NCBI RefSeq assembly: GCF_023055435.1
Contig: NW_025964372.1
Coordinates: forward strand, 23,312,001-23,376,000
Length of the DNA stretch: 64,000 nucleotides
Reading direction: 5' to 3'
Source of the DNA: Haliotis rufescens
Taxonomy: Eukaryota
Below are positions 2,201-60,560 of the stretch, piece by piece (within the stretch, counting starts at the first letter, position 1; every line of letters starts with the position of its first letter). A model generated the notes under the pieces. The model searched no databases, was not told the origin of the DNA, and saw only the letters and a program-made list of their open reading frames with translations. The position numbers and the translations under genes are program-made.

Positions 2201-3940
2201 GTCAGTACCACGATAATAACATCTCTTTTCATATCAATAACGAGAGTAGGGGGTCCATATCAATAACGGGATGGGGGAGGTACGGTAACACACTCCCTTT
2301 AAACAGTTGCTTCCATTAGTCATGTCAGCTTGCCATGGGCATGATCCCTTGTGTGACAGCGCCCTACACGTCCCCTAACTGCGACACTTTGATGTGGGGG
2401 TTGGGTGTGGGGTGGTGTCGTCACTTCCTTGTGTATTTAGTTAAGACTAGGGATGGTGCCCCCTCATCTTTAATTGTCACGTCTATAGATAATTAAATTG
2501 GCATCCTGCTAAATTGTTGATCCGGACCCTCCGTCCGGAGTAATGACGTTTCGTAATACGCGTGTCGTAGGATGTCAGCAGAGTTTGGTAGAAAACAAAT
2601 AGCACGTCAGTGATGTGGATTCTAGAACATTTTAACAAAACTTAGTTGACTACTACAGAACTTAATTTTCGCTTTATATAGTCCAATATGCATTGCCAAA
2701 ACAAAGTCATTGAATCTATTTCTTTTAACAAATGTCTTCAAGTCATGGCGGAAATAGAATTTTCCTTTTGAACAAGTACAGATTAGTATTTCAACGGAAT
2801 TCCGTAATACCTATGTATTCCTTGATGCCGGACCGCGTGGTTCTAATTTGTACATTTCTGACGATATATTTGCATCATTGCACACTCGATCTGGGAATGG
2901 AGTACAAAAAAAATTGCTGTAAAATGTCTTAAACCCTTGGGGTGTTAACTGTCACGATTCTGAAGAACCCGAAATCTTTTGTCAAAGGTGAATCAATAAA
3001 AAAAACCGTACATACCAAGGTGGGTGGTTTTTTTAATCCGAGCTTTTCGCTCTTACTGTTAAGCACTTAACTTACATTTTTTTCTAAATAAAAGCGACAA
3101 AAACTTTCCATAGCCACAAGGTATTTTCTCTTAACGGAAAAGTCGATTTTCGTTTCTGACTGTGTCATGAACAGGTGTTTGTAAATCACTATGAAATACA
3201 CGTTTATAACCATTCAGTATGTTCATTTTATAAGGTTCTGTTCATTACAGAGGCGTACATATTTGAATCATTACACTTGCAAACATTAATTTCGTCATTT
3301 TGAACACAATGTAGAAATAAGTGCCTTAGCCACGTAAGGATCAGCTGGTCGAAGGTTCGAGTCCCACATTTGCCCCCTTTATGGTCATTGGTCTGTGGGC
3401 ATTTTCATATCACATGAAGTTGTTATATAAGGGGATACATTCTAGCTCAATCACTCACTTAGATCAATGTAAGTTTTATCTTCGCAGAATGCTCATTCGA
3501 CTTATTCAAAAAAGCTGCCATATGAATTCAAAAAAGTTTGTATTACATTCCCATAGCACTCTCTTTCTACGCGTTCTCTGGAAATACTATGACGTCATGA
3601 TTTAATGGCTGACGTCATATTCTTTCATGACATCAAAAGAACCCGCCAGATTAAGAAAATGATCCGAAACCTCAACTACATCAACTTTGTGTGATAAATG
3701 TTATTTAATCCAAATATGCTTCTCAAAAGAAATTAAAGAACGCCTCATTCGTTCACATTACTATAATTAATCTGTCATGCCATAACAGAATAACTAAAGT
3801 ATATATAATGGATGCGATACTAATACTGAATAGAATATGTTCTCAAATTTGGGACATGATACTTACTAAAGAAAGACTTCTAATCCCTTTCAAAACGTTT
3901 GTCAACCACTCCGATTTCGGTGCATTTTAAATAACATCGT

Positions 3941-4201
3941 CCCGTGAAGATCCGGGGTAGAATAGGTCTTCAGCAACCCATGCTTGCCGTAAAAGGCAGC
4001 TATGCTTGTCGTAAGAGGCGACTAACGGGATTGGGTGGTCAGTCTCGCTGACTGGTTGATGCATGTCATCGTATCCCAATTGCATGGGTCGATGCTCATG
4101 ATGTCAATCACTGGATTGTCTGGTCCAGACTCGATTATTTACAGACCGCCGTCATTTAGCTGGACTATTGTTGGGCGTTAAACAACAAATAAACAAACAA
4201 A
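3941..4201 (+). mobile_element. SINE-like family B (non-tRNA head), in the last GPCR intron
   Basis: Begins cccgtgaagatccggggtagaataggtcttcagc and ends cgttaaacaacaaa. TSD aaataacatc. Several near-identical copies in the window. Confidence 0.85.
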
Positions 4202-4261
4202 AAATAACATCACTTGAAAACTCTGAACAAATAAATATGGTCTTTCTCTTATTTCCACCAG

Positions 4262-4489
4262 GAGAAGTTTAAGCGCGAGTTCCGAATCCTCTTCTCCATG
4301 TGCCCATGCCAGTGTGCTCAGAAAGAATACAAGAAGGAGTATACGGACTACTACAGTGAGGACGGCAACCAGACGTTCCGACGATGCAGCATGATGAGGA
4401 ACCCGGCGGTGAGGTACAACTTCAACAGGGACGAGCACAAGCGACTGTCCCGAAGGTCCACGGAAATGACAGAGACATCGCAAATCTGA
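4262..4489 (+). CDS. Lkr: Same GPCR, terminal coding exon (helix 8 and C-tail)
   Basis: Pyrimidine tract and ccaccAG acceptor end at 4261. A phase-0 join gives GLLN|EKFKREFRILFSMCPCQC...STEMTETSQI*. The Cys cluster after helix 8 fits palmitoylation sites. Stop TGA at 4487-4489. Confidence 0.9.
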   Translation, partial: EKFKREFRILFSMCPCQCAQKEYKKEYTDYYSEDGNQTFRRCSMMRNPAVRYNFNRDEHKRLSRRSTEMTETSQI

Positions 4490-7150
4490 CTAGCACGGGA
4501 CCGGCGCCATCGAGATATGGCCAAAGCTCTCAATATGTCCAGCGTTTGACATCAAATGTCTATGCTGATTGTGAAGCTTAATGTTCAAGCGTTGTGAATC
4601 CGCATAGCCGATGGACACAGATGTTTGGGACAGTGTACAAACATGTGACATCACAGGCGAATCAATGAACATGCTTATATCAAGGCGCTTGTCCCTGCTA
4701 GAGATGCTGAGGAATAAGCACAAACTGTTGTTATTCCTGTTTTGTTTAGACTTCAAAATATTAATGTTAAAGGTGTGAGACTATTTCTTCATAACGTAGA
4801 AATGAAAGAGAAAAACACTCACAGTTGTAGAGGACGACATGTGGTCATGTAATTTGAGGTCAGGGACCGTCAAATATCTAGGTAACAAGACGCGAAAGTT
4901 AGGAGCTAATATACCATAGACGCTGATCTGACTCTGCTTGTGACTCTGATCTGCATCCGACAACCGATTTCAAAAGGAAGTCTAAAGAATTCATGCTGCA
5001 GATGTCGGTGCTTGCCATTTAATGCCTAACCCTGGTCAAACTTCTGAGGTTCTCAGATGAGAATTGTGTATACCCATAATCAAACATTCTCTGATGGTTC
5101 ATGGGGATGCCTGAAGTCATTGTCTCGTAGGACCACAGCCAGGTCACCAACACATCCTTTGGCTCAACTTTGGAGGGATGTGTTCTTTACGGTCCAGTAA
5201 CGTATACACGGTGAGATTGGTGGTATAGTCATGGACAATGCTTTGAAGTGAGTCAAAAATCGCCTTGATCAAACTCTTTTTCTGATCCAAGTGACAATCA
5301 ATTACTGGCAAAACTGTGAAAGGATCAAATGTGCGGTACGTGGGAATGGGGAGTCTGATTCAAATCCAAAGGACAAACATAATATGGATGTGTGTAAAAG
5401 TTGAACGATCTACCATACTTGTACAGAGAAGTAGAGTACTCACAGAACATGTTGATAGCTTTTACTTGACATGAATATCGACCACATCAAGTGAACCACT
5501 TGGGTTGAATACACGTCAATAATGGTGTTTGCTGCTCAAAAACAAAAATCGTGGCAGTGTTAAACACTTAGCCTTTGGGTTGCTATACAAGCATACTAAT
5601 GGCATTTCCAGTGTTCTGAGGTCCAAATCATGATTGCCTGTAATTATGTGACTCCTCGAACCACATGGTAATTTGACCTAAAATCTGTGCATGATATGCC
5701 TCAGGGTGGGATCGATACCAAAGTGTTTTCTTGTGGACAAGTCGTCAAGCTAGAACTCTTAATCTGTGGCTAATGGTCAAAGATCGCTCATTAGGATTTG
5801 GCTGTAAGGGTCTCTGTCGTTTGTGTTTGTGTGTTCCAAGGCATGACTTGTGAATGGAGAGTGCGTTTCTCCAATCAGCTGTGAATTTCGTGGACCGATA
5901 CTCGAAAACGTTTCGTTAGTTATGATTGAACAAGACAGGGCTACGTAACTGGAACATTTCGTCAGGGTGTAACTATGAATTTGATCAATCGAAGAACGCA
6001 GTGGATATAAGACACAACAATCATGATTTTACGGTGTATTGTTGTATGATGGAAAAAGTTTGTATGTGAAATACTTAACCGATGGGTTAGCTTGATATGG
6101 TGGATTGGTTGCAAAATATACAAATATCAGAATCAATGACAGGTTTCATTTTGTGATTACCAAAGAGGAGCAAAGGTCAAATTTGAGGGCCGGAGGGCGA
6201 AGGTCATGGTGTGTGAAATGGGGTTGAGGTTGTCCCATGGGGTCGGGGCAACTTCTCTCTCCATATCATGTCAGATGGACAAAAAAAATTAACTTAAACA
6301 AAAAATATTAATTTTAAGATTTTCTAATTTTCCGACCCATTTGTATGCTTTCATTTTCAGGAAGGAACCTCAAACCTATGCTCCTCTAAAGTCAAACACA
6401 AATGTTTATTACGCGGCAAGTTTGAAAGAATTGTTAAAGGACATATAACAAACAGTTCACAGAATGATATCACACATTCATATCGACACCATGTACATAT
6501 AGGACCATCCCAGTTGGAGGCGCATTGGTGAATATCAAAGCTCAACGAGAGATATGAACCCTTCTCAGGGGAAGTATCTCGGTCTCGGATACAAGACTTA
6601 CGAAGTTCTCATATGACACCTGTTGAAATATGACATGTAAAGTTTCATGCAAGATTACATACTTTAAAATTGGGCTGCATGAAGGCTCGAGATGGGACTT
6701 TCCTCGTCGTATTGTGAATATAATATGTAATGAGCCTTTAAACAAATGACTGTATAATATTATGGCTGATGTAATCTTTCCTATAAACATTACATATTCA
6801 CACATATTTCTATCAGAAATGTAATTTGTATTAGTGATTAGAACCTATCAATATTCTGTGTTTAACTCATGTATGTTTTGCTCGGTTTTCATTGTTATAA
6901 CCTTGTGTGTATGCTACATATTTGTATGTTGGGATAAATATATATATGACGTAACTTTCATTTCATGGGTTGTGCTGGCATGTGAATTATTTGCATTATT
7001 AGATTAAAGCAGTCATGTATTTACTCACTATGATTATGTTGGTATGTAATAATACATAAATGTTTAATTCAATAATAAAGATAAATGATTGATGTCCAGT
7101 CAGCGGAACATATGATGTATATGATTACTGAATATGATAATAAATTATTT
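4490..7150 (+). other. Probable 3'UTR of the GPCR with AATAAA signals at 7074 and 7139
   Basis: Follows the stop codon, contains none of the SINEs that are common elsewhere, and ends in an AT-rich region with AATAAA hexamers. The 3' end is inferred. Confidence 0.45.
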
Positions 7151-7997: not shown

Positions 7998-8164
7998 GGG
8001 GCGGTCGGGGAGCCTAGTGGTTAAAGCGTTCGCTCGTCACGCCGAAGACCCGGGTTCGATTCCCGACATGGGTACAATGTGTGAAGCCCATTTTTGATGT
8101 CCCCCGCCGTGATATTGCTGGAATATTGCTAAAAGCGGCGAAAAAACCATATTCACTCACTCAC
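7998..8164 (+). mobile_element. tRNA(Asp)-derived SINE family A
   Basis: A box tagtggttaaag, GTCACG..GACCCGGGTTCGATTCCC (tRNA-Asp-like), (TCAC)n tail. TSD tattaactatg. Confidence 0.9.
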
Positions 8165-10113: not shown

Positions 10114-10351
10114 TTTTGTTTGTTGTTTTACTCCGCACTCAGCAATGTTCCAGCAAAAAGACGACGGTCTGTAAATTATCGAGTCTGGACTAGACGATCC
10201 AGTGGTTGATATCATAAGCATCGACCCACGCAATTGGGATATGACGGCATGCATCAACCAAGTCAGCAAGCCTGAAAACCCGATCCCGTTACTCGCCTAT
10301 TACGACAAACATGGGTTGCTGAAGACCAATCGTAATCCGGATCTTCACGGG
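10114..10351 (-). mobile_element. SINE-like family B (single-module variant)
   Basis: Reverse complement begins cccgtgaagatccgg and has one atgtttgtcgtaataggcga module. Confidence 0.85.
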
Positions 10352-10505
10352 TGTTCAACAATACAAAGAGACAAGACAGTGAAATAAAGTTGAAGGGTTG
10401 CTTCAGAATAGCACGGAAATCAAAAGATTCCTCAATGTGAAAATAAGTCCTACCACCTGTAAGTGCCAGCGCACAGTCCCCTCACACACTGGTCACTGGT
10501 GTTAG

Positions 10506-10750
10506 AGGGTAGAACAGGTCTTCAGCAACCCATGCTTGCCGTAAAATGCGACTATGCTTGTCGTAAAAGGCGACTAACGGGATCGGGTGGTCAGGCTCGC
10601 TGACTTGGTTGATGCATGTCATCGTATCCCAATTGCGTGGATCGATGCTCATGATATCAATCACTGGATTGTCTGGTCCAGACTCGATTATTTACAGACT
10701 GCCGTCATATAGCTGGAATATTGCTGAGTGCGACGTTAAACAACAAACAA
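10506..10750 (+). mobile_element. SINE-like family B, slightly 5'-truncated
   Basis: Matches 3955-4201 and ends gacgttaaacaacaaac. Confidence 0.85.
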
Positions 10751-11033: not shown

Positions 11034-11190
11034 GGGGCGGTCGGGTGGTTAAAAGCGTTCGCTCGTCACGCCGAAGACCCGGGTTCGATTCCCGACATGG
11101 GTACAATGTGTGAAGCCCATTTTTGGTGTCCCCCGCCGTGATATTGCTGGAATATTGCTAAAAGCAGCGTAAAACCATACTCACTCACTC
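11034..11190 (+). mobile_element. SINE family A
   Basis: Matches 7998-8164. Flanked by cct(c/g)tcgactg. Confidence 0.9.
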
Positions 11191-12851: not shown

Positions 12852-13013
12852 GGGGCGGTCGGGTAGCCTAGTGGTTAAAGCGTTCGCTCGTCACGCCGAA
12901 GACCCGGGTTCGATTCCCGACATGGGTACAATGTGTGATGCCCATTTGTGGTGTCCCCCGCCGTGATATTGTTGGAATATTGCTAAAAGCGGCGTAAAAC
13001 CATACTCACTCAC
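12852..13013 (+). mobile_element. SINE family A
   Basis: Full length. TSD tcatctgtatga. Confidence 0.92.
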
Positions 13014-13465: not shown

Positions 13466-13724
13466 CGATGCTGTTTCATATACGTTCACATGTTTTATTT
13501 TGTTTTATATCTATAAGGATGTTAGTTGTTATAAACATAACATTAGGAAAAAACAAAAGTTCACTATGCTTATGAAGACCAAATACAACTCAGCGGAAGA
13601 AATATGTCTCTGAAATATACTCTACAAATGGTAAAGTATCTTCAACGAGTAATAAACATGTGGTTGATTTTTTATTTTCAAGACCCAAGCAAGGAATACG
13701 AGTGCGTGGAGACTTTCTTTCTAC

Positions 13725-16640
13725 ACGCCTCCCCTTGATCTATCTTTTCTCCCCACCTCCCCTTGATCTATCTTTTCTCCCCACCTCCCCTTGGTCTATC
13801 TTTTCTCAACACCTCCCCTCGGTCTATCTTTTCTACCCACCTCCCCTCGGTCTATCTTTTCTACCCACCTCCCCTTGGTCTATCTTTTCTCAACACCTCC
13901 CCTTGGTCTATCTTTTCTACCCACCTCCCCTCGGTCTATCTTTTCTACCCACCTCCCCTCGGTCTATCTTTTCTCAACACCTCCCCTTGGTCTATCTTTT
14001 CTACCCACCTCCCCTCGGTCTATCTTTTCTACCCACCTCCCCTTGGTCTATCTTTTCTACCCACCTCACCTTGATGTATCTTTTCTACCCACCTCCCCTT
14101 GGTCTATCTTTTCTACCCACCTCCCCTTGGTCTATCTTTTCTACCCACCTCCCCTTGGTCTATCTTTTCTACCCACCTCCCCTCGGTCTATCTTTTCTAC
14201 CCACCTCCCCTCGGTCTATCTTTTCTCAACACCTCCCCTTGGTCTATCTTTTCTACCCACCTCCCCTCGGTCTATCTTTTCTACCCACCTCCCCTTGGTC
14301 TATCTTTTCTACCCACCTCCCCTCGTTCTATCTTTTCTACCCACCTCCCCTTGGTCTATCTTTTCTACCAAACCTCACCTTGGTGTATCTTTTCTACCCA
14401 CCTCCCCTTGGTCTATCTTTTCTACCCACCTCACCTTGGTGTATCTTTTCTACCCACCTCCCCTTGGTCTATCTTTTCTACCCACCTCACCTTGGTGTAT
14501 CTTTTCTACCCACCTCCCCTTGGTCTATCTTTTCTACCCACCTCACCTTGGTCTATCTTTTCTACCCACCTCCCCTTGGTCTATCTTTTCTACCCACCTC
14601 ACCTTGGTGTATCTTTTTTCAACAGCTCCCCTCGGTCTATCTTTTCTACCCACCTCACCTTGGTCTATCTTTTCTACCCACCTCACCTCGGTCTATCTTT
14701 TCTCCCCACCTCCCCTTGATCTGTCTTTTCTCCCCACCTCCCCTTGGTCTATATTTTCTCAACACCTCCCCTCGGTCTATCTTTTCTACCCACCTCCCCT
14801 TGGTCTATCTTTTCTCAACACCTCCCCTCGGTCTATCTTTTCTACCAACCTCCCCTCGGTCTATCTTTTCTACCCACCTCCCCTTGGTCTATCTTTTCTA
14901 CCCACCTCACCTTGATGTATCTTTTCTACCCACCTCCCCTTGGTCTATCTTTTCTACCCACCTCACCTTGGTGTATCTTTTCTACCCACCTCCCCTTGGT
15001 CTATCTTTTCTACCCACTTCCCCTTGGTCTATCTTTTCTACCCACCTCCCCTTGGTCTATCTTTTCTACCCACCTCCCCTTGGTCTATCTTTTCTACCCA
15101 CCTCACCTCGGTCTATCTTTTCTACCCACCTCCCCTAAGTCTATCTTTTCTACCCACCTCCCCTTGGTCTATCTTTTCTACCCACCTCCCCTTGGTCTAT
15201 CTTTTCTACCCACCTCCCCTCGGTCTATCTTTTCTACCCACATCCCCTTGGTCTATCTTTTCTCAACACCTCCCCTTGGTCTATCTTTTCTTCCCACCTC
15301 CCCTTGGTCTATCTTTTCTACCCACCTCACCTTGGTCTATCTTTTCTACCCACCTCCCCTCGGTCTATCTTTTCTACCCACCTCCCCTTGGTCTATCTTT
15401 TCTACCCACCTCACCTTGGTGTATCTTTTCTACCCACCTCCCCTTGGTCTATCTTTTCTACCCACCTCACCTTGGTGTATCTTTTCTACCCACCTCCCCT
15501 TGGTCTATCTTTTCTACCCACCTCACCTTGGTGTATCTTTTCTACCCACCTCCCCTTGGTCTATCTTTTGTACCCACCTCACCTTGGTCTATCTTTTCTA
15601 CCCACCTCCCCTTGGTCTATCTTTTGTACCCACCTCACCTTGGTCTATCTTTTCTACCCACCTCACCTTGGTGTATCTTTTTTCAACATCTCCCCTCGGT
15701 CTATCTTTTCTACCCACCTCACCTTGGTCTATCTTTTCTACCCACCTCCCCTTGGTCTATCTTTTCTCAACACCTCCCCTTGGTCTATCTTTTCTACCCA
15801 CCTCCACTCGGTCTATCTTTTCTCCCCATCTTCCCTCTGTCTATCTTTTCTCCCCACCTCCCCTCGGTCTATTTTTTCTCCCCGCCCACCTCAGTCTATC
15901 TTTTCTCCCCACCTCACCTTGGTGTATCTTTTCTTCCCACCTCCCCTCGGCCTTTCCTTTCTACCCACCTCCCCTCGGTCTATTTTTCTCCCCACCTCCC
16001 CTCGGTCTATCCTTTCTACCCATCTTCCCTCGGTCTATCTTTTCTCCTCGCCCACCTCAGTCTATCTTTTCTCCCCACCTCACCTTGGTCTATCCTTTCT
16101 CCCACCTCAACTTGGTCTATCTTTTCTCCCACGTCACCTTGGTCTATTTTTTCTACCTATCTGCCCTCGGTCTATCCTTTCTCCCCACCTCCCCTCGATC
16201 TATATTTTCTCCCCACCTCACCTTGGTCTGTCTTTTCTCCCCACCTCCCCTCGATCTATATTTTCTCCCCACCTCACCTTGGTCTATATTTTCTCCCACC
16301 TCACCTTGGTCTATCCTTTCTCCCACCTCACCTTGGTCTATCTTTTCTCCCACGTCACCTTGGCCTATTTTTTCTACCCATCTGCCCTCGGTCTATCTTT
16401 TCTACAAATCTGCCCTAGGTCTATCGTTTGTACCCACCTCCCCTCTGACTATCTTTTCTTCCCATCTTCTCTCGGTCTATCTTTTCTTCCCACCTTCTCT
16501 CGGTCTATCTTTTCTACCCCACCTCCCTCTGTCTATCTTTTCTCCCCCACCTCCCTCGGTCTATCTTTTCTCCCCCACCTCCCTCGGCTTCTCTTTTCTT
16601 TCCATCTTAACTCGGTCTCTCTTTTCTACCAATTTCCCAT
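13725..16640. repeat. 28-bp pyrimidine-rich minisatellite (ccacctccccttggtctatcttttctac)n, about 100 units
   Basis: Direct periodicity with recurring variant units. Degenerates toward ~16760. Confidence 0.97.
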
Positions 16641-17555
16641 CTTTCTACCCAACTTCCAATCGTTCTGTATTTTATACCCATTGTGTCCCACCTTCTGTCT
16701 TTCTGACCATCTCCCCTCTCGGTCTGTCTTTTCTACCCCTATTCCCCCTCTATCTACCCATATCCCAATGGGACTATCTCGCCCACTCATCTCGCGCTCC
16801 GAGACATATGTTCGTATATTGTAATCACGCATTTCGTGCATTGAGATGACCCTTCCATAATCTTCTGTCAAGCAATACGAATGTTGAAACATACGTGTTC
16901 TTCAATCTCTTAACGGTTAAAGAGATTCCAAAATCCGTGCACACTGTTAATTTCATGTCTATTTTTATTAAGCGTCGAGAGACGTTTTCATCTTTCAAAT
17001 AATGATTTTACGTTGATGAAGCCAGGACACCTAGGGGTGCCCGTATCAGAGCCTCCCATCCTTCCACATGACAGACACCAACATTGTAGTTGAGGTATTT
17101 GCTGCTTTCAGAAGCACGCTCAGCGCCACTGGCACCGGTTTGTGCATCAGTGCGTATGGGTATATTACCTTCAGGAGTATCATGTGCATGACGTGAGCTC
17201 ATCTGCTACTGGTGGCGCTTTGGACTTATTGCATGAAGCAAACTTTAAGAATATCATTTCATCAATTTAACATTTTGATGAAGGCATATTGATGCGAGGT
17301 GGGCGGGGAGATAGGATGGATATTTATCAAGTATTTAGTCTCACTGAGATCGCTGCGAATAGCTACAAGTTTGTTGATGCGGCGTTAAACAGTAATCACT
17401 CACTCACGCTGTCATCGAAATTATTACTGTGTTGGCAGAGTAACTGGGGCTCGTATTGGACGCATTCAAAAGCAAATCAGTTCAACGTAAGAATGGTTGC
17501 CATTTCACGGGTCTATTCACGGACACATTGATATTGATATACGCATGTGGACTAA

Positions 17556-23045: not shown

Positions 23046-25187
23046 CATTTAACGTGAATTTCTCTTTTCCATTTGAAATCACTTCAATCTTTGCATCCTG
23101 ACATCCATGAATTGCTGTGTCTGAATCATAAACAGACAACATAAATCATGTGTTTTCATATTGTAGATTGAAATGATACTGCCAAAGATTACGTTTTTCT
23201 ATAGATTCCTGAATTAAATTCGCTCTTAATGCGCTATAAAAAATCTTAGATAACGATGTGATTGGAACAAAAAACAGTTATGTTCAATGTTGAATGAATG
23301 AGTTTGATAGGGCGTTGTAATGTTCATTTGTCTAACAGGATCAGAACTAATATCTAGATGCATCTTTGATTTGTTAGAATAACACATCCACCACATCAAA
23401 ACTTTTTTCCCTTTACAAAATAAAAATAATATTTCCACACATCACCCTAAAGCTAAATTGGCATTAAACTTTGAATTTTTCTGTATTAAGCCTTCATTGG
23501 CGAAACCGTTCTCTAATCTTTATAAACTCATTCAGAAGATAGGGGCATCTCCAACTTGTCAGTTGCTTAACGACAAAATATTAATCAGGCAATCTATATT
23601 CTGAATGATTTCAAGCATACGAAATGCAACAGTTCAGTCAAAAGTACTTTCAAGGAAATATCTTTTACAGATTTTGACGACTCTCCTAATTAACTTGAGA
23701 AGTAGACGAAACAAGATACAAGTGCATCTTCTTAAAGCTACACGTCCAAACACCCACACGGCGGTTTAGTCAGAAATATATATCGAACAGACTACGAAGA
23801 TGCGTCAGTGATTGACCACGAAGTTTAGTCCGAGGCCGTTAGGCCGCTTGTCTGAAAATGGATTCATTGACCGGGATATATATTGTATAGCGCCTGAGGA
23901 ACGTAGTTCCCAAATGTTTTCTTTTTTATGCAAATTGTGTGAATGGCGGGCGCTAACGTTAGAGCAGGACATGCTTACCCTTTTTGCGAACACGTGTTGT
24001 CATCACTGATTTTCAGTGGTCCATTCATATATTTTCACGGCTGTTTTACCCCGACGGTGTGCGATATTGATCATGATTATTTACAGGCCGCCGAGATAAA
24101 GCGGCATTAAACCAAACTCACTCACTTACTCACTCACTCACTTTGAGCTCGCGAGAATTACACATCCATACGGAATGAGTAGTAAACAGTATCTCGTTTC
24201 TTCATTGATCTCCCCAAACCCTGTATGGCTGAAGTTGTTTTGCAGTTGCGAATAGCTTAATGATCTTGTTAATCCTGTCACCAGCTTAATCAGCATTAAC
24301 CAGTTGGTCACAAGTCATGTCAAGATGACCACGCCCCCCAGTCGTGAGATAACCTAACACAGTCTTTAACAATGATCTCAACAACATTACTACACGACAG
24401 ATGCATACTTACCTAAGCGCTTAAACTACCATATTCAAACCTGGAAGAACTGCCATGTTCACATTCATTGCATGACTTAACGACCTGAACGGAGATCCCG
24501 CTGACCTTCACAACCGACGATCTGCATTCCAATCTAAGAAATCGCTTAAATTCTTTTCCAGAAACGTCCTTCGTGACCAGAGGCAATGTCTACTATGTCT
24601 ATTACCTGTGTGACATTAATGTCCATTACGCAGGTACGTCACACTGCCACTATTACAGATACCATTCACAGTCGAACACCGTTTTCACACAGGCAAGACA
24701 TAATACTCAATTCTCAACCTTGATAGCTTCCATTAATGGGAACATTTATCAGTCTGAATGGCATCATTGAAGACATCCCTGGATTCTTGCTGTATAATGA
24801 AGGTATTTTTCCGCAATCATGTAACATGCAATTTTTATGAATGCAGTTGCAAGACCATGTGGGTAAAATGTTCAACTAGGCTCAACTAAAGACATGAATA
24901 AATTGCACCTAAGCTGCCGGGTAGGAAAAAACATACACACGTGTTTGATTGTGACTGAATGAAAAAAACAAGACTTGTTATTCGATGGTGAGGTATAGTT
25001 GTGTTTTGGACCTTAGGTTTCAGCGACTGTTTTCAGCCAAGTAACGTTGGTACTGTTTTGGTCAAATCCAATGTCAAGTGTGTACTCACGTTTGCCCTTA
25101 GACAAGCTGCGTCTCTTGAAAATCTACACCAAGACATATGTGGTAGGTAAGAGCGCTGTGTCGTGCTATTGTCAAAAATACTTTTTA

Positions 25188-25432
25188 CCTGTGACGATCT
25201 GGTTTAGAATAGGTCTTCAGCAACCCATGCTTGACGTACCGGCCACAATGCTTGTTGTGTAAGAGGCGACTAACGGGATAGGGTGGTCAGGCTCGCTGAC
25301 TTGGTTCATGCATGTCATCGTAATCTAAATTGCGTAGTTCGATGCTGGATGTCAATCATTGGATTATCAGGTCCAGATTCGATTATGTACAGGCCGCTGA
25401 CATATAGCTGGAATATTGCTAAATGCGGCGTA
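25188..25432 (+). mobile_element. SINE-like family B, diverged
   Basis: cctgtgacgatctggtttagaataggtcttcagcaaccc...taagaggcgactaacggg. Confidence 0.8.
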
Positions 25433-27558: not shown

Positions 27559-27689
27559 NNNNNNNNNNNNNNNNNNNNNNNNNNNNNNNNNNNNNNNNNN
27601 NNNNNNNNNNNNNNNNNNNNNNNNNNNNNNNNNNNNNNNNNNNNNNNNNNNNNNNNNNNNNNNNNNNNNNNNNNNNNNNNNNNNNNNNN
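27559..27689. other. Assembly gap (N run)
   Basis: Run of n. Confidence 1.
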
Positions 27690-30500: not shown

Positions 30501-30934
30501 AAGTAAACTAGGTCACGAGAGTTCGTATGTCATTATTTTCCATAGTTTTTTCTTATGCTTGGATTTCTGAGGCTTTTTATAATAATAATATATTAATGAG
30601 TACGTTTTCTCAAAGTTGTAATGATAACAATTCGACGACTGGCACAGTTGACTGTCAGGAAGAAGTGATTTCTCTGTTAATCCTAGTTTTAAATCTTTGT
30701 TGTCTACAGACAAATATGTTATAGAATTACTAAGATTAAGTTATACCAATTATTGTCATCAACAATATTGCTTACATGAAAAGTCTTGCTATATTCTTAA
30801 AAAGAAATTTGCCGTTTTGTCGGTGTGCGCAGATAAAACAACATATTGTAAAAGCATGTGCCCTTGGCCTTCTGATAGAAATAAACTTGTCTCTTGCCTT
30901 GTTTCTTGTCTCTCTAATCCCAGGAATTTGATTT

Positions 30935-31201
30935 TTTGTTTGTTCGTTTGTTTGTTGTTTAACGCCACACTCAGCAATATTCCAGCTACATGACGGCAGT
31001 CTGTAAATAATCGAGTCTGAACCAGACAATCTAGTTATTGACATCATGAGCATCGATCCACGCAATTGGGATACGATGACATGCATCAACCAATCAGCGA
31101 GGCTGACCACCCGATCCCGATAGTCGCCTCTTACAAGCAAAGTCGCCCTTTACAGCAAACATGGATTGCTGAAGACCTGGTCTACCCCGGATCTTCACGG
31201 G
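30935..31201 (-). mobile_element. SINE-like family B
   Basis: Reverse complement begins cccgtgaagatccggggtagaccaggtcttcagc. Confidence 0.85.
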
Positions 31202-31329
31202 TCCAGGGATTTGCTAAGTTTCTGCACCAATTTTATAAGAGGTATTTTGCAATGAAATTTATCGCCAATTTTTCAAAAAAATGTTTTGGTTTATTTAATT
31301 TGGGATGCGTGTAATTAATCGTTGTAATC

Positions 31330-33322: not shown

Positions 33323-33590
33323 GACCGCCTCTGTGGTCTAGTGGTAGAGCGTCCGCCCGGAGAGCGGAAGGTCCGGGGTTGGATCCCCGGCCGCGTCATA
33401 CCAAAGACGTTAAAAGATGGTACTTGTTGTTACCCCGTCTGGCGCTCGGCATAAAGGGGCTAAAACAAGGATTGGTCGGCTCGGGGTCAGTATACTGTGT
33501 CTGAGTGGGGTATTCATGTTAAACTGCGGCATGGTATCTCAGTGAGCTAGCACTATAATAAATCGGCATTAGTCCACGCAGCCACGCACG

Positions 33591-57949: not shown

Positions 57950-60560
57950 CGTATATGGCAGTCTAAGTTATTGTTAAAAAATGTTGTGATTGTATTACAT
58001 TATGTCTGTTCAGATTCAGTTCAAGTTCATAACATTGTGTTCTAATAGTAATTAGTTGTCAGGAATGTATTACCATCTTATGTAAGCAGAGGTGTCGAAG
58101 TTATAATATTTTGATACGTTTGAAGTAAGGTGTAGTCTGGAATCTCTTTCAGCACAGCAATTGACTTATCCAGAATGGTACAGAACTTTCTAGGAAGTAT
58201 TGAGACTATATACGTGTGCAAACGCATGACTCTCTCACCACACATTACATCATGACCAGCAGTTGTGTGAAAATCCAAAGCAAACTCTACAAAAGTAGAA
58301 ACATCCTTTTGCTTAGTAGATCTAAACGTTTGCCTCTAAGCTTTAGGAAATAATTAATAAGCCTTCAAAATTGCAGCCTCAACAAAATGATAGTCAGAAC
58401 TCCTATCAATTAGTAAGGCAGAATAAACTTACTGAGTTTTACCCCTTAAAACACTTTGCAACAACATGGACGAATAATTCTGAGGCCAGTTTAAACTGCT
58501 AGCCAGCTTTTCAAAATGTAAGAAAAACGTTTCAACATCATGTTCAGAGAAGGGCGGAACAAGTCTAATCAGGTTGGAAAGATCAAACGATCTATCACCT
58601 GTTGCGGTACAGCGAGAGATTCTGTAAATCAATTTGTTTCATGTAAATTTCTTTATCAGCTTGAATTCTAATTACTTAATCCGAAATTCTCTCTCTTCTT
58701 TTCCTTTCTCATCTTCAAATTTCAATTTTTCATTTTCGTTCTCAGCTTGAATTTCTAATTGCATAATCCGAAATTCTCTCTCTTCTTTTTCATGCTTGAC
58801 AATGACATTATTGAACCAAGTCATAGTGACTTGAGTTCACCTTACCTTCTTGTGTCGAAGCCTGATGGTATTTCCAGACGCTATACAGACTGACTCTTAC
58901 CAAATACCAAGAACCAATAACAGCATCCACAGAATAAGTCAAAGCAAATACGTCAACAAACTTGTTGACCTACTTGGCTTGATCGATTAAAGGGGTATTG
59001 GCAGTTCCCATGGACTGAGCATGCCAAGAGGGTCTCAGCTTTTGTGATTCCAGATGGTCTTTTTCAATAAAAAATTATGCTGTTTAGGTTCAAGAATGCT
59101 CCTTCCACATTCCAGCATCCCATCAATGACATTACAGACAATCGTGAGAATTCCAAATCCTACATCAACGATGTCATCACTTATCCTATCAAGTGGGATG
59201 AACACCTGAAGAGGATCCGTGTCTTCTTCGAGACACTCACTGAAGCCAAGTTGACTAAATTTCAAGAATTGTGATTTTGCACATGTCACAGGCCAAGGTC
59301 AGGTTCTGCCCGTTCAGGCAAAGGCAGAAACTATTTCAAAATATCAAAGTTCCCCCCGCCCAAAATTATCATGAATTTTCTGGGCATCCCTGGCTACTTT
59401 CTCACGTGCAGTAGCCCTTCTCACTAATTTGCTGGGTAAAAGGGTTAAATTTGTTTGGGACAGCAATTGTCTGTTTGCTTTGGAGAAAATTAAAGCCATT
59501 CTCATGAATTCTCCTGTTCTCCGAGCACCATAATTTGCAACACCTTTCAGATTGGCAGTAAGTGCTGGTGACATTTGGTGCTGGAGCTGTCCTGTTACAA
59601 GAAGATGCATCAGGCTTTGATCATCCTGTTTGTTATTATTCACAACATTTAACAAACATCAGGTATATCATCCCAAATTGAAAAAGAAACTCTTGCTCTA
59701 TTATTGGCTTTGCAACAATTTGAAGTGTATTTGGGTACTACTGTGTTTCCGATCCAAGTGAACACTATCACAATCCACTGACGTTTCTTCATAAAATGAA
59801 GACCTAAAACCAATGCGCTGGAGCTTGTCTTTGCAGGAATTTGATTAAGACATCAAAGACAAAGTAAACAAATTATCACGTATAATGTTTACTATCATTT
59901 ACTTAGCTGCTTTTGTACTTTAATTTGCAAAGAAAGTTCTCACTTTGTTCAAATTTTCATTCTCCGAAGGCAGCGAGTATCATATGGCAGTGTAATTCAT
60001 TGTTAAACAATGTAGTAATTGTATCACATTGTTTCTGTTTAGTAGAAGTTGATAACATTGTGTTTCAACAATAATTAGTTGTTTGTTTGTTTGGGTTTTT
60101 TTAACGCCGCACTCACCAATATCCCAGCTACATGACGGCGGTCTGTAAATAGTCGAGTCTGGGCCAGACAGTCCAGTGATTGATATCATGAGCATCGACC
60201 CACGCAATTTGGACACGATGACGTGCATCAACCAAGTCAGCGAGCCTGACCACCCGATCCCGTGAGTCACCTCTTACGACAAGCATGGTCACCTTTACAG
60301 CAAGCATGGGTTGCTGAAGACCTATTCTACCCCGGATCTACACGGGTTTGTCAGGAATGTATTACTATCTAATGTAAGCAGTAGTGTTAAACTTACTATA
60401 TTTTGATACTTTTAGAGACAAGTGTAATCGGGAATCTTCTAGAATAGCCATAGACTAGTCCAGCGTGGTATAGAACTTTCTAGAAGATATTTAGACTATA
60501 CAAGTGTGCAAACGCTCTCTCATCTAACATTACATCAAGGCCAGCTGTTTTGTAAAGATC
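57950..60560 (+). mobile_element. Rearranged Ty3/Gypsy LTR retrotransposon relic
   Basis: Direct repeats at ~57950-58278 and ~59980-60560. RT/RNase H remnants on + (KGYWQ, FKNAPSTFQ, YINDV, GAGAVLLQ, IEKETLALLLAL). Gag remnant on - (IRLVPPFSEHDVETFFLHFEK..LLQSVLRGK). Confidence 0.8.
60083..60346 (-). mobile_element. SINE-like family B inserted in the right LTR
   Basis: Reverse complement begins cccgtgtagatccggggtagaataggtcttcagc. Absent from the left LTR. Confidence 0.88.

Follow-up and report, generated by a model that had tools for sequence, protein, structure and literature searches.

The window analysed here (64,000 nucleotides of Haliotis rufescens contig NW_025964372.1) carries near its beginning a full-length SINE of about 260 bp, at 3939..4201 on the forward strand, framed by a 10-bp target-site duplication (TSD; 3929..3938 and 4202..4211). 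A BLAST comparison of 3941-4400 with the window gave five matches starting at the same base (3941 and 25188 on the forward strand; 10351, 31201 and 60346 on the reverse strand) and seven partial ones. Full-length copies occupy 30929..31203 and 60079..60348 (both reverse), 10115..10353 (reverse, an older copy in single-unit form) and 25186..25432 (forward, diverged), and a copy at 10507..10750 (forward) is without its first ~14 nt. Genome-wide, at least 18,705 heads of this family are present, as counted by exact occurrences of a 39-nt pattern from the head (reversed control, 0). The shared starting point agrees with the initial annotation, in which four copies began exactly at CCCGTG (3941 in the first) and the one at 25188 at the equivalent position; the true 5' end, however, lies 2 nt upstream, at 3939, and reads GA-CCCG. 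In 116 heads from retrieved loci, the base before CCCG is A in 101, the next one G in 84 and the third random. Ninety-two of these heads have a tail and 44 of the 92 a called TSD (8-17 bp); the element starts with GA in 18 of the 44, and with A after a TSD ending in G in 6. The G at 3939 is the less conserved of the two bases (67-72%), and the 3941 copy itself reads GT at 3939..3940. About 90 of 107 heads contain a 22-nt tandem duplication (3980-4001/4002-4023), which doubles the last hairpin of the head, P4, and nine have a single unit. The 3' tail (4147..4201) resembles the 3' ends of I-group (Nimb-like) LINEs, as judged against shuffled sequences, and then runs into a (CAAA)n-type repeat.

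Several other features were recorded around this family. Head-only tandem arrays made of the first 44-52 nt, the half that holds the first pseudoknot described below, occur in this genome at C1:866833-867495, C1:4063345-4063735, C1:5715492-5716051 and C1:9113275-9113703, and back-joints from 3986 to 3941 that match such arrays were seen in contigs of run X1. Three small-RNA runs gave 7, 103 and 13 reads on the SINE, mostly antisense on its body and with no pile at the 5' end, in libraries blind to RNAs longer than ~50 nt; antisense RNAs of ~30 nt, piRNA-like, stack on the body at 4111-4141 (reverse strand), with 63 starts at 4141 in run X20 and 9 in X21. Just 3' of the SINE, ~4260-4490 (forward) is GC-richer and looks like a coding exon, in which case the SINE copy would be intronic and in sense orientation. 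Elsewhere the window contains a tandem array of ~28/56-bp period with an extreme C/T strand skew (13718-16779), two recent local duplications (48241-50787/51520-54059, 2.5 kb, 97.6%; 50786-51520/54512-55246, 735 bp, 98.6%) and a run of 131 N (27559-27689).

The head gave no Rfam match, tRNA or other, at E<=1, which upholds the earlier view that this family has no tRNA head; at this threshold there is no sign of derivation from tRNA, 5S or 7SL RNA as in Pol III SINEs. A different SINE family of the window does give tRNA matches (12857-12928, 8003-8074 and 33327-33398; further tRNA-headed copies at 11034, 26727, 34962 and 44898). A family of this kind has been published: Matetovici et al. 2016 (PMC4758252) described, in the excerpts available, LP-SINEs of 255 bp from Haliotis and oysters, with a ~70-bp head that also occurs in Nimb-17_LMi, I-3_DR and RTE-9_CPB. 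Our element shares with Hdi_LP and Hmi_LP the LINE-shared, non-tRNA head, the length, the variable TSDs and the 3' tandem-repeat tail, and the "Nimb-17 homology" block of scallop (Supplementary Fig. S2 of that paper) shows by eye the same motif as this head. The hexamer quoted for Hdi_LP is AATATA, and most copies here have AATATT. We thus assign the SINE, provisionally, to the LP-SINE family on head, length, TSDs and tail rather than on identity to a Haliotis consensus. In those excerpts the LP head was assumed to be a promoter, experiments were called for and the L1Tc ribozyme was cited merely as a parallel; they give no fold, viral copies or partner LINE. Nor did a search of the open-access literature find, apart from the 2016 paper, a description of the head, or any report of the fold, the viral copies, the HDV pairing or the motif string. 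The SINE family, including the head that it shares with LINEs, has been published, and what appears to be new is the RNA fold, the viral copies and the pairing with an HDV-like ribozyme.

All homologues were found with a 17-mer of P4 as search key, which occurs in at least 120 metagenome stretches and in 5 viral contigs; lengthened to an 18-mer, it matched 5 genome contigs. The module, as we call the shared head, is now known from LINEs, from SINEs of other animals and from the 3' UTRs of six RNA-virus lineages. In this genome it stands at the 5' ends of I-group LINEs, in line with the LINE-derived leader that the initial annotation had considered, and in L199 it precedes ORF1 and ORF2 of a LINE. 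None of the five genome-contig matches is a convincing prokaryotic copy, four resembling animal retroelement DNA and one resembling chance; L198, L199, L200 and L202, filed under bacterial genomes or MAGs, look like animal retroelement DNA. In all six small-virus lineages the module lies downstream of the last long ORF and in sense, beginning 91-186 nt from the contig end and occurring in tandem in two (L187 and L235). Four lineages have an RdRp (L191, L193, L194 and L235), two are identified by capsid genes only (L187, L188/L064), and some of the viruses are tombus-like. Looser viral patterns led to 10 more contigs, none above 19 bits with our model R2, and 11 pattern matches (L186, L189, L192, L195, L201, L234 and L236-L240), at 25 bits or less or without a score, were taken as chance. 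Across 14 homologous loci Rfam had no match on the module. We also noted a SINE family that, like the MESC SINEs of scallop, carries a tRNA-like segment behind the module (L076, L095, L104 and relatives), a locus with two modules in tandem (L084), a copy without the second pseudoknot that is flanked by two genes of the same strand on a 212-kb DNA-virus contig (L190:9952-10028), and a CTGATGA...GAAA string downstream of the module that is reminiscent of a hammerhead core (L069, L085, L151 and relatives).

The fold was deduced from a MAFFT alignment, not fitted to structure, of 22 hand-picked lineage representatives drawn from 27 clusters and the LINE subfamilies. The alignment leaves aside 5'-truncated or decayed families (L114, L142, L078, L094, L198, L013), two of the chance matches (L234, L236), a pair with a long insert (L074/L135), L235 and L110. 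Numbered on the 3941 copy, a first pseudoknot is formed by stem S1 (3941-44/3953-56, within 3941..3956) and stem S2 (3946-52/3965-71, within 3946..3971): the 5' strand of S2 lies inside S1 behind a 1-nt loop, the invariant U3945, and an A-rich strand with a conserved AGAAU (3957-64) crosses back. Downstream follow a stem P3 (3972-75/3981-84, within 3972..3984), whose loop contains CCC (3977-79), the P4 hairpins of the duplicated unit (3980..4023; 3986-4000 imperfect, 4008-4022 perfect with the 7-nt loop UAAGAGG, which may be T-loop-like) and GGG (4027..4029), the predicted partner of the P3-loop CCC in a second pseudoknot. S1, S2 and P4 together are paired in 87.5% of alignment cells, with 41 double-change cells, and none of 500 shuffles was as good. 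Double changes affect all seven pairs of S2, so that a stem proposed early on is now confirmed as 3946-52/3965-71, and one pair of S1, itself short (3-6 bp). P4 has none, its invariance being by construction since it was the search key; the hairpin at 4008-22, proposed from the start, is confirmed as well. P3 was detected by RNAalifold (25 double-change cells; 0 of 500 shuffles as good by cells paired and score, not by pair-type counts), which overturned our reading of 3981-84 as an internal-loop strand. The P3 loop and the strand after P4 form a mean run of 4.0 pairs, as against 2.9 with strands of other lineages, and 0 of 10,000 partner swaps did as well; this second pseudoknot is weak (1-2 bp) in 4 of the 22 lineages, three of them viral, and counts just 3 bp in the SINE. 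Slid controls drop to 30-51% paired, and relatedness of the rows can inflate covariation tests of this kind. Swap tests of S1 and S2 are partly circular, because the segments had been picked to give the best S1 and S2 (1 of 26 could not be parsed and several were parsed wrongly), and the other covariation tests were used instead. First P4 copies with a compensatory change are in the minority (34 of 72 where the set is biased towards the query, 0 of 35 in unbiased loci), and the change was not counted as evidence. The module, ~70-90 nt long, is thus predicted to consist of two tandem H-type pseudoknots, the second with an inserted hairpin.

That the head would be a structured, pseudoknotted RNA had been anticipated, and its helices do covary across lineages; the covariation check proposed at the outset supports two pseudoknots and a hairpin, though not the pairings first drawn. 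These joined a loop GGGT to ACCC and closed the 5' CCCG onto CGGG (4026-29). They are paired in only 46% of cells, 91 of 500 shuffles are as good, and 1244 and 1085 of 5000 partner swaps, respectively, do as well; in effect, that pseudoknot and that closing helix have their partners exchanged. The closing helix is not conserved across lineages, but it does appear when the SINE family is folded as single sequences: such folding favours it over the covarying arrangement, with unremarkable stability (z -0.6 to -1.8).

The LINEs of this genome allow the role of the module at a 5' end to be examined more closely. A search with the ORF2 protein of L199 gave 77 scored matches, of which 20 were taken for analysis; the three that were scanned all encode endonuclease, RT and RNase H. 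The module lies ~500-600 nt before ORF1 in most of the 20, and in 15 of them a further 58 nt of the LINE precede the module. This leader fits a minimal HDV-like ribozyme: a descriptor recovers P1, P2, P3 and L3, and Rfam RF02682 aligns with it from end to end, if weakly (27-29 bits, the threshold being 44; four of four such loci). This ribozyme has a very short P4 of its own and stands exactly at the 5' end of the I-group LINE family (L213-L232, L301-L330; e.g. L225:2018-2075). The TSD abuts its G1 in 12 of 14 called cases and is 1 nt off in the other two. The adjoining module has 747 exact matches in this genome, and the whole ribozyme is retained in 30 of 30 copies (the first 30 of the 747), which argues against cutting or initiation by the module at its own 5' edge. 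Families without the ribozyme begin at the module itself. The first base, 6 nt before the invariant U, is G in the SINE (84/116), T in a second LINE family, which starts T-CCCCG (19/20 of the top matches, a query-biased set), A in family A (20/26) and G in family B (20/22), and the next position upstream is random in these four. In family C the start seems to lie 5 nt ahead of the U (6/10 have A). The start of the HDV-less elements is thus set by distance from the invariant U and not by the base, less clearly so in family C; the spacing between the start and the conserved blocks differs among families. At the other end, SINE and LINE tails share ~40 nt, and 7 of 8 LINE tails outscore all 200 shuffles when compared with the L003 copy. 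A Nimb-like LINE is therefore the likely partner of the SINE, judging from the shared tail; no LINE family with a CAAA-type tail was found as the exact partner. The Nimb-like LINEs are clustered and often nested in one another's ORF2 (L216, L218, L221, L224, L230; C445:31.2-32.1 Mb, C46:4.7-6.2 Mb).

With the HDV-like ribozymes of LINE 5' ends (L1Tc Pr77, R2, RTE) the module has in common a structured, conserved 5' position and precise junctions. Its strand order is different, and in the sister LINE family a true HDV-like ribozyme stands upstream of it. A relaxed descriptor of the P1-P2-P3-L3-P1.1-P4-J4/2 fold recovered, as positive control, the ribozyme upstream of the LINE module, but gave no solution when the LINE module was tested by itself (two tests) or in eight of nine SINE copies; in the ninth copy it fits loosely and outside the conserved head. 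The suggestion that the head is a variant HDV-like ribozyme is thus not borne out. Twister, twister-sister, pistol, hatchet and hammerhead ribozymes had no Rfam match either (E<=1 in the window, E<=5 in the 14 loci). As for exonuclease-resistant RNAs (xrRNAs), which as a functional class stop Xrn1 without the help of proteins and form a ring about the 5' end, the covarying helices give two H-type pseudoknots and no three-way junction, unlike classes 1 and 2. The class 3 xrRNAs of plant viruses (ST9a, SCNMV, PLRV), as presented in the excerpts of PMC12397905, share with the module a small pseudoknot with its first stem at the 5' end, an AG-bearing strand that crosses back, a 3' UTR location and a T-loop-like 7-nt loop nearby, if ours is indeed a T-loop. 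Their P1/P2 stack with its J1/2 bulge and their T-loop inside the apical loop are missing here, whereas the module has AGA instead of AGY (J1/3) and an extra second pseudoknot. The coremin xrRNA of tombus-like and noda-like viruses likewise has a short GUC...GAC hairpin followed by UAAA, but in the excerpts of PMC10520033 its loop is YGAD/YGNNAD in a 5' hairpin, whereas the module has the 7-nt UAAGAGG in a hairpin at the 3' end of a larger fold. In its predicted fold, the module is outside the xrRNA classes described in the available text of PMC12397905, PMC8374639 and PMC10520033.

The covariation of the S1, S2 and P4 set, of P3 and of the P3-loop pairing indicates that the module acts as RNA. 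A structure that stalls 5'-3' exonucleases accounts for the fixed start, the retained LINE ribozyme and the 3' position in viruses, and our preferred reading, held tentatively and with not quite even confidence, is that the module is an exonuclease-resistant RNA that trims and protects the element RNA and so sets its exact start. Read-through transcription would yield longer host transcripts carrying the SINE, on which Xrn1 or Xrn2 would stall 1-2 nt before stem S1, leaving a protected element RNA; the ORF2 protein of a Nimb-like LINE would then recognise the shared tail and copy the trimmed RNA. RNA ends with a 5'-OH are not known to be Xrn substrates; the end left by the ribozyme of the HDV-bearing LINEs would be one of these, and the ribozyme would be retained for that reason. 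In the viruses, the effect of the module would be to generate or shield a short 3'-coterminal RNA. Known xrRNAs, in the excerpted text, lie in 3' UTRs and are often in tandem (PMC8374639), and on the coremin xrRNA Xrn1 comes to a stop one nucleotide ahead of the first hairpin (PMC10520033). Against this reading, the fold lacks every feature looked for that defines xrRNA classes 1-3 or the coremin type, and Rfam gave no match. The shortness of S1, the weakness of the second pseudoknot, the start of family C and the single-sequence folding also count against it. Transcription usually starts at a purine, and three of the four well-sampled start bases are purines; the G at 3939 could be cap-derived.

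The near-terminal position in viral genomes would also suit a translation or replication element. It is conceivable, though we think it unlikely, that the fold enhances translation independently of a cap or binds ribosomes or eIFs; uncapped LINE and viral RNA would profit from this, and SINE RNA would be led to the ribosomes making ORF2 protein. The module does lie directly 3' of a ribozyme that would leave the LINE RNA uncapped, and the unpaired conserved AGAAU and UAAGAGG suggest a ligand surface; tombus-like viruses carry it in their 3' UTRs, and their plant relatives use 3' CITEs, according to the excerpts of PMC12397905. By itself, however, such an activity leaves the fixed 5' start of the HDV-less elements unexplained, and neither the window nor the 14 loci show an Rfam likeness to a known enhancer. 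The proposal of 2016, an internal promoter with the RNA fold as a second use (as in the dual use of L1Tc Pr77), fits the 5'-end position in LINEs and SINEs (PMC4758252, as excerpted), the purine first base of three families and the partial, possibly cap-derived G. We consider it quite improbable: the start is at variable spacing from the conserved blocks, one LINE family starts with T, families A and B have no upstream G excess and none of the 30 HDV-bearing LINEs starts at the module, while the covariation would go unexplained and a DNA promoter would be useless in RNA viruses.

A precise start set by distance from a compact double pseudoknot with conserved unpaired residues is also what a new class of self-cleaving ribozyme, cutting 6 nt before the invariant U, would produce. 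Such a ribozyme would sever the upstream HDV-like ribozyme, yet all 30 copies keep it, with the caveat that the site, located where stem P2 of the HDV-like ribozyme ends, could be masked; the first base varies freely (G, A or T), viral 3' ends would be cut off and no HDV, twister, pistol or hatchet likeness was found by Rfam in the window or the 14 loci, so that we rate this possibility no higher than the promoter. Poorer still, in our estimation, are the prospects of a binding site for LINE ORF1 or ORF2 protein that fixes the 5' junction at integration, the viral copies being captured passengers or having another role. In its favour, the head is common to LINE families with otherwise different UTRs, both here and in PMC4758252. 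Against it, the stems of the viral copies carry compensations of their own, the location of these copies is consistent, and the junctions of HDV-bearing LINEs ignore the module.

How SINEs and LINEs with neither Pol III boxes nor a ribozyme obtain exact 5' ends is the question that the module addresses, and the natural pair of LINE families with and without HDV, together with the fold and the viral copies, makes its function directly testable. Should it block Xrn1, it would represent an xrRNA of new architecture that is cellular and encoded by retroelements, and the transcripts of this genome could contain 18,705 roadblocks or more; should it enhance translation instead, this would account for the translation of LINE RNAs that a ribozyme has cut and left uncapped. 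More speculatively, and with clear doubt, the exonuclease-blocking reading may be extended to a new double-pseudoknot class of nuclease-blocking RNA exchanged between viruses and retrotransposons, by which LINEs and SINEs would dispense with a promoter or ribozyme of their own, their RNA being carved out of read-through transcripts by host exonucleases. These SINEs would then be elements matured by RNA decay.
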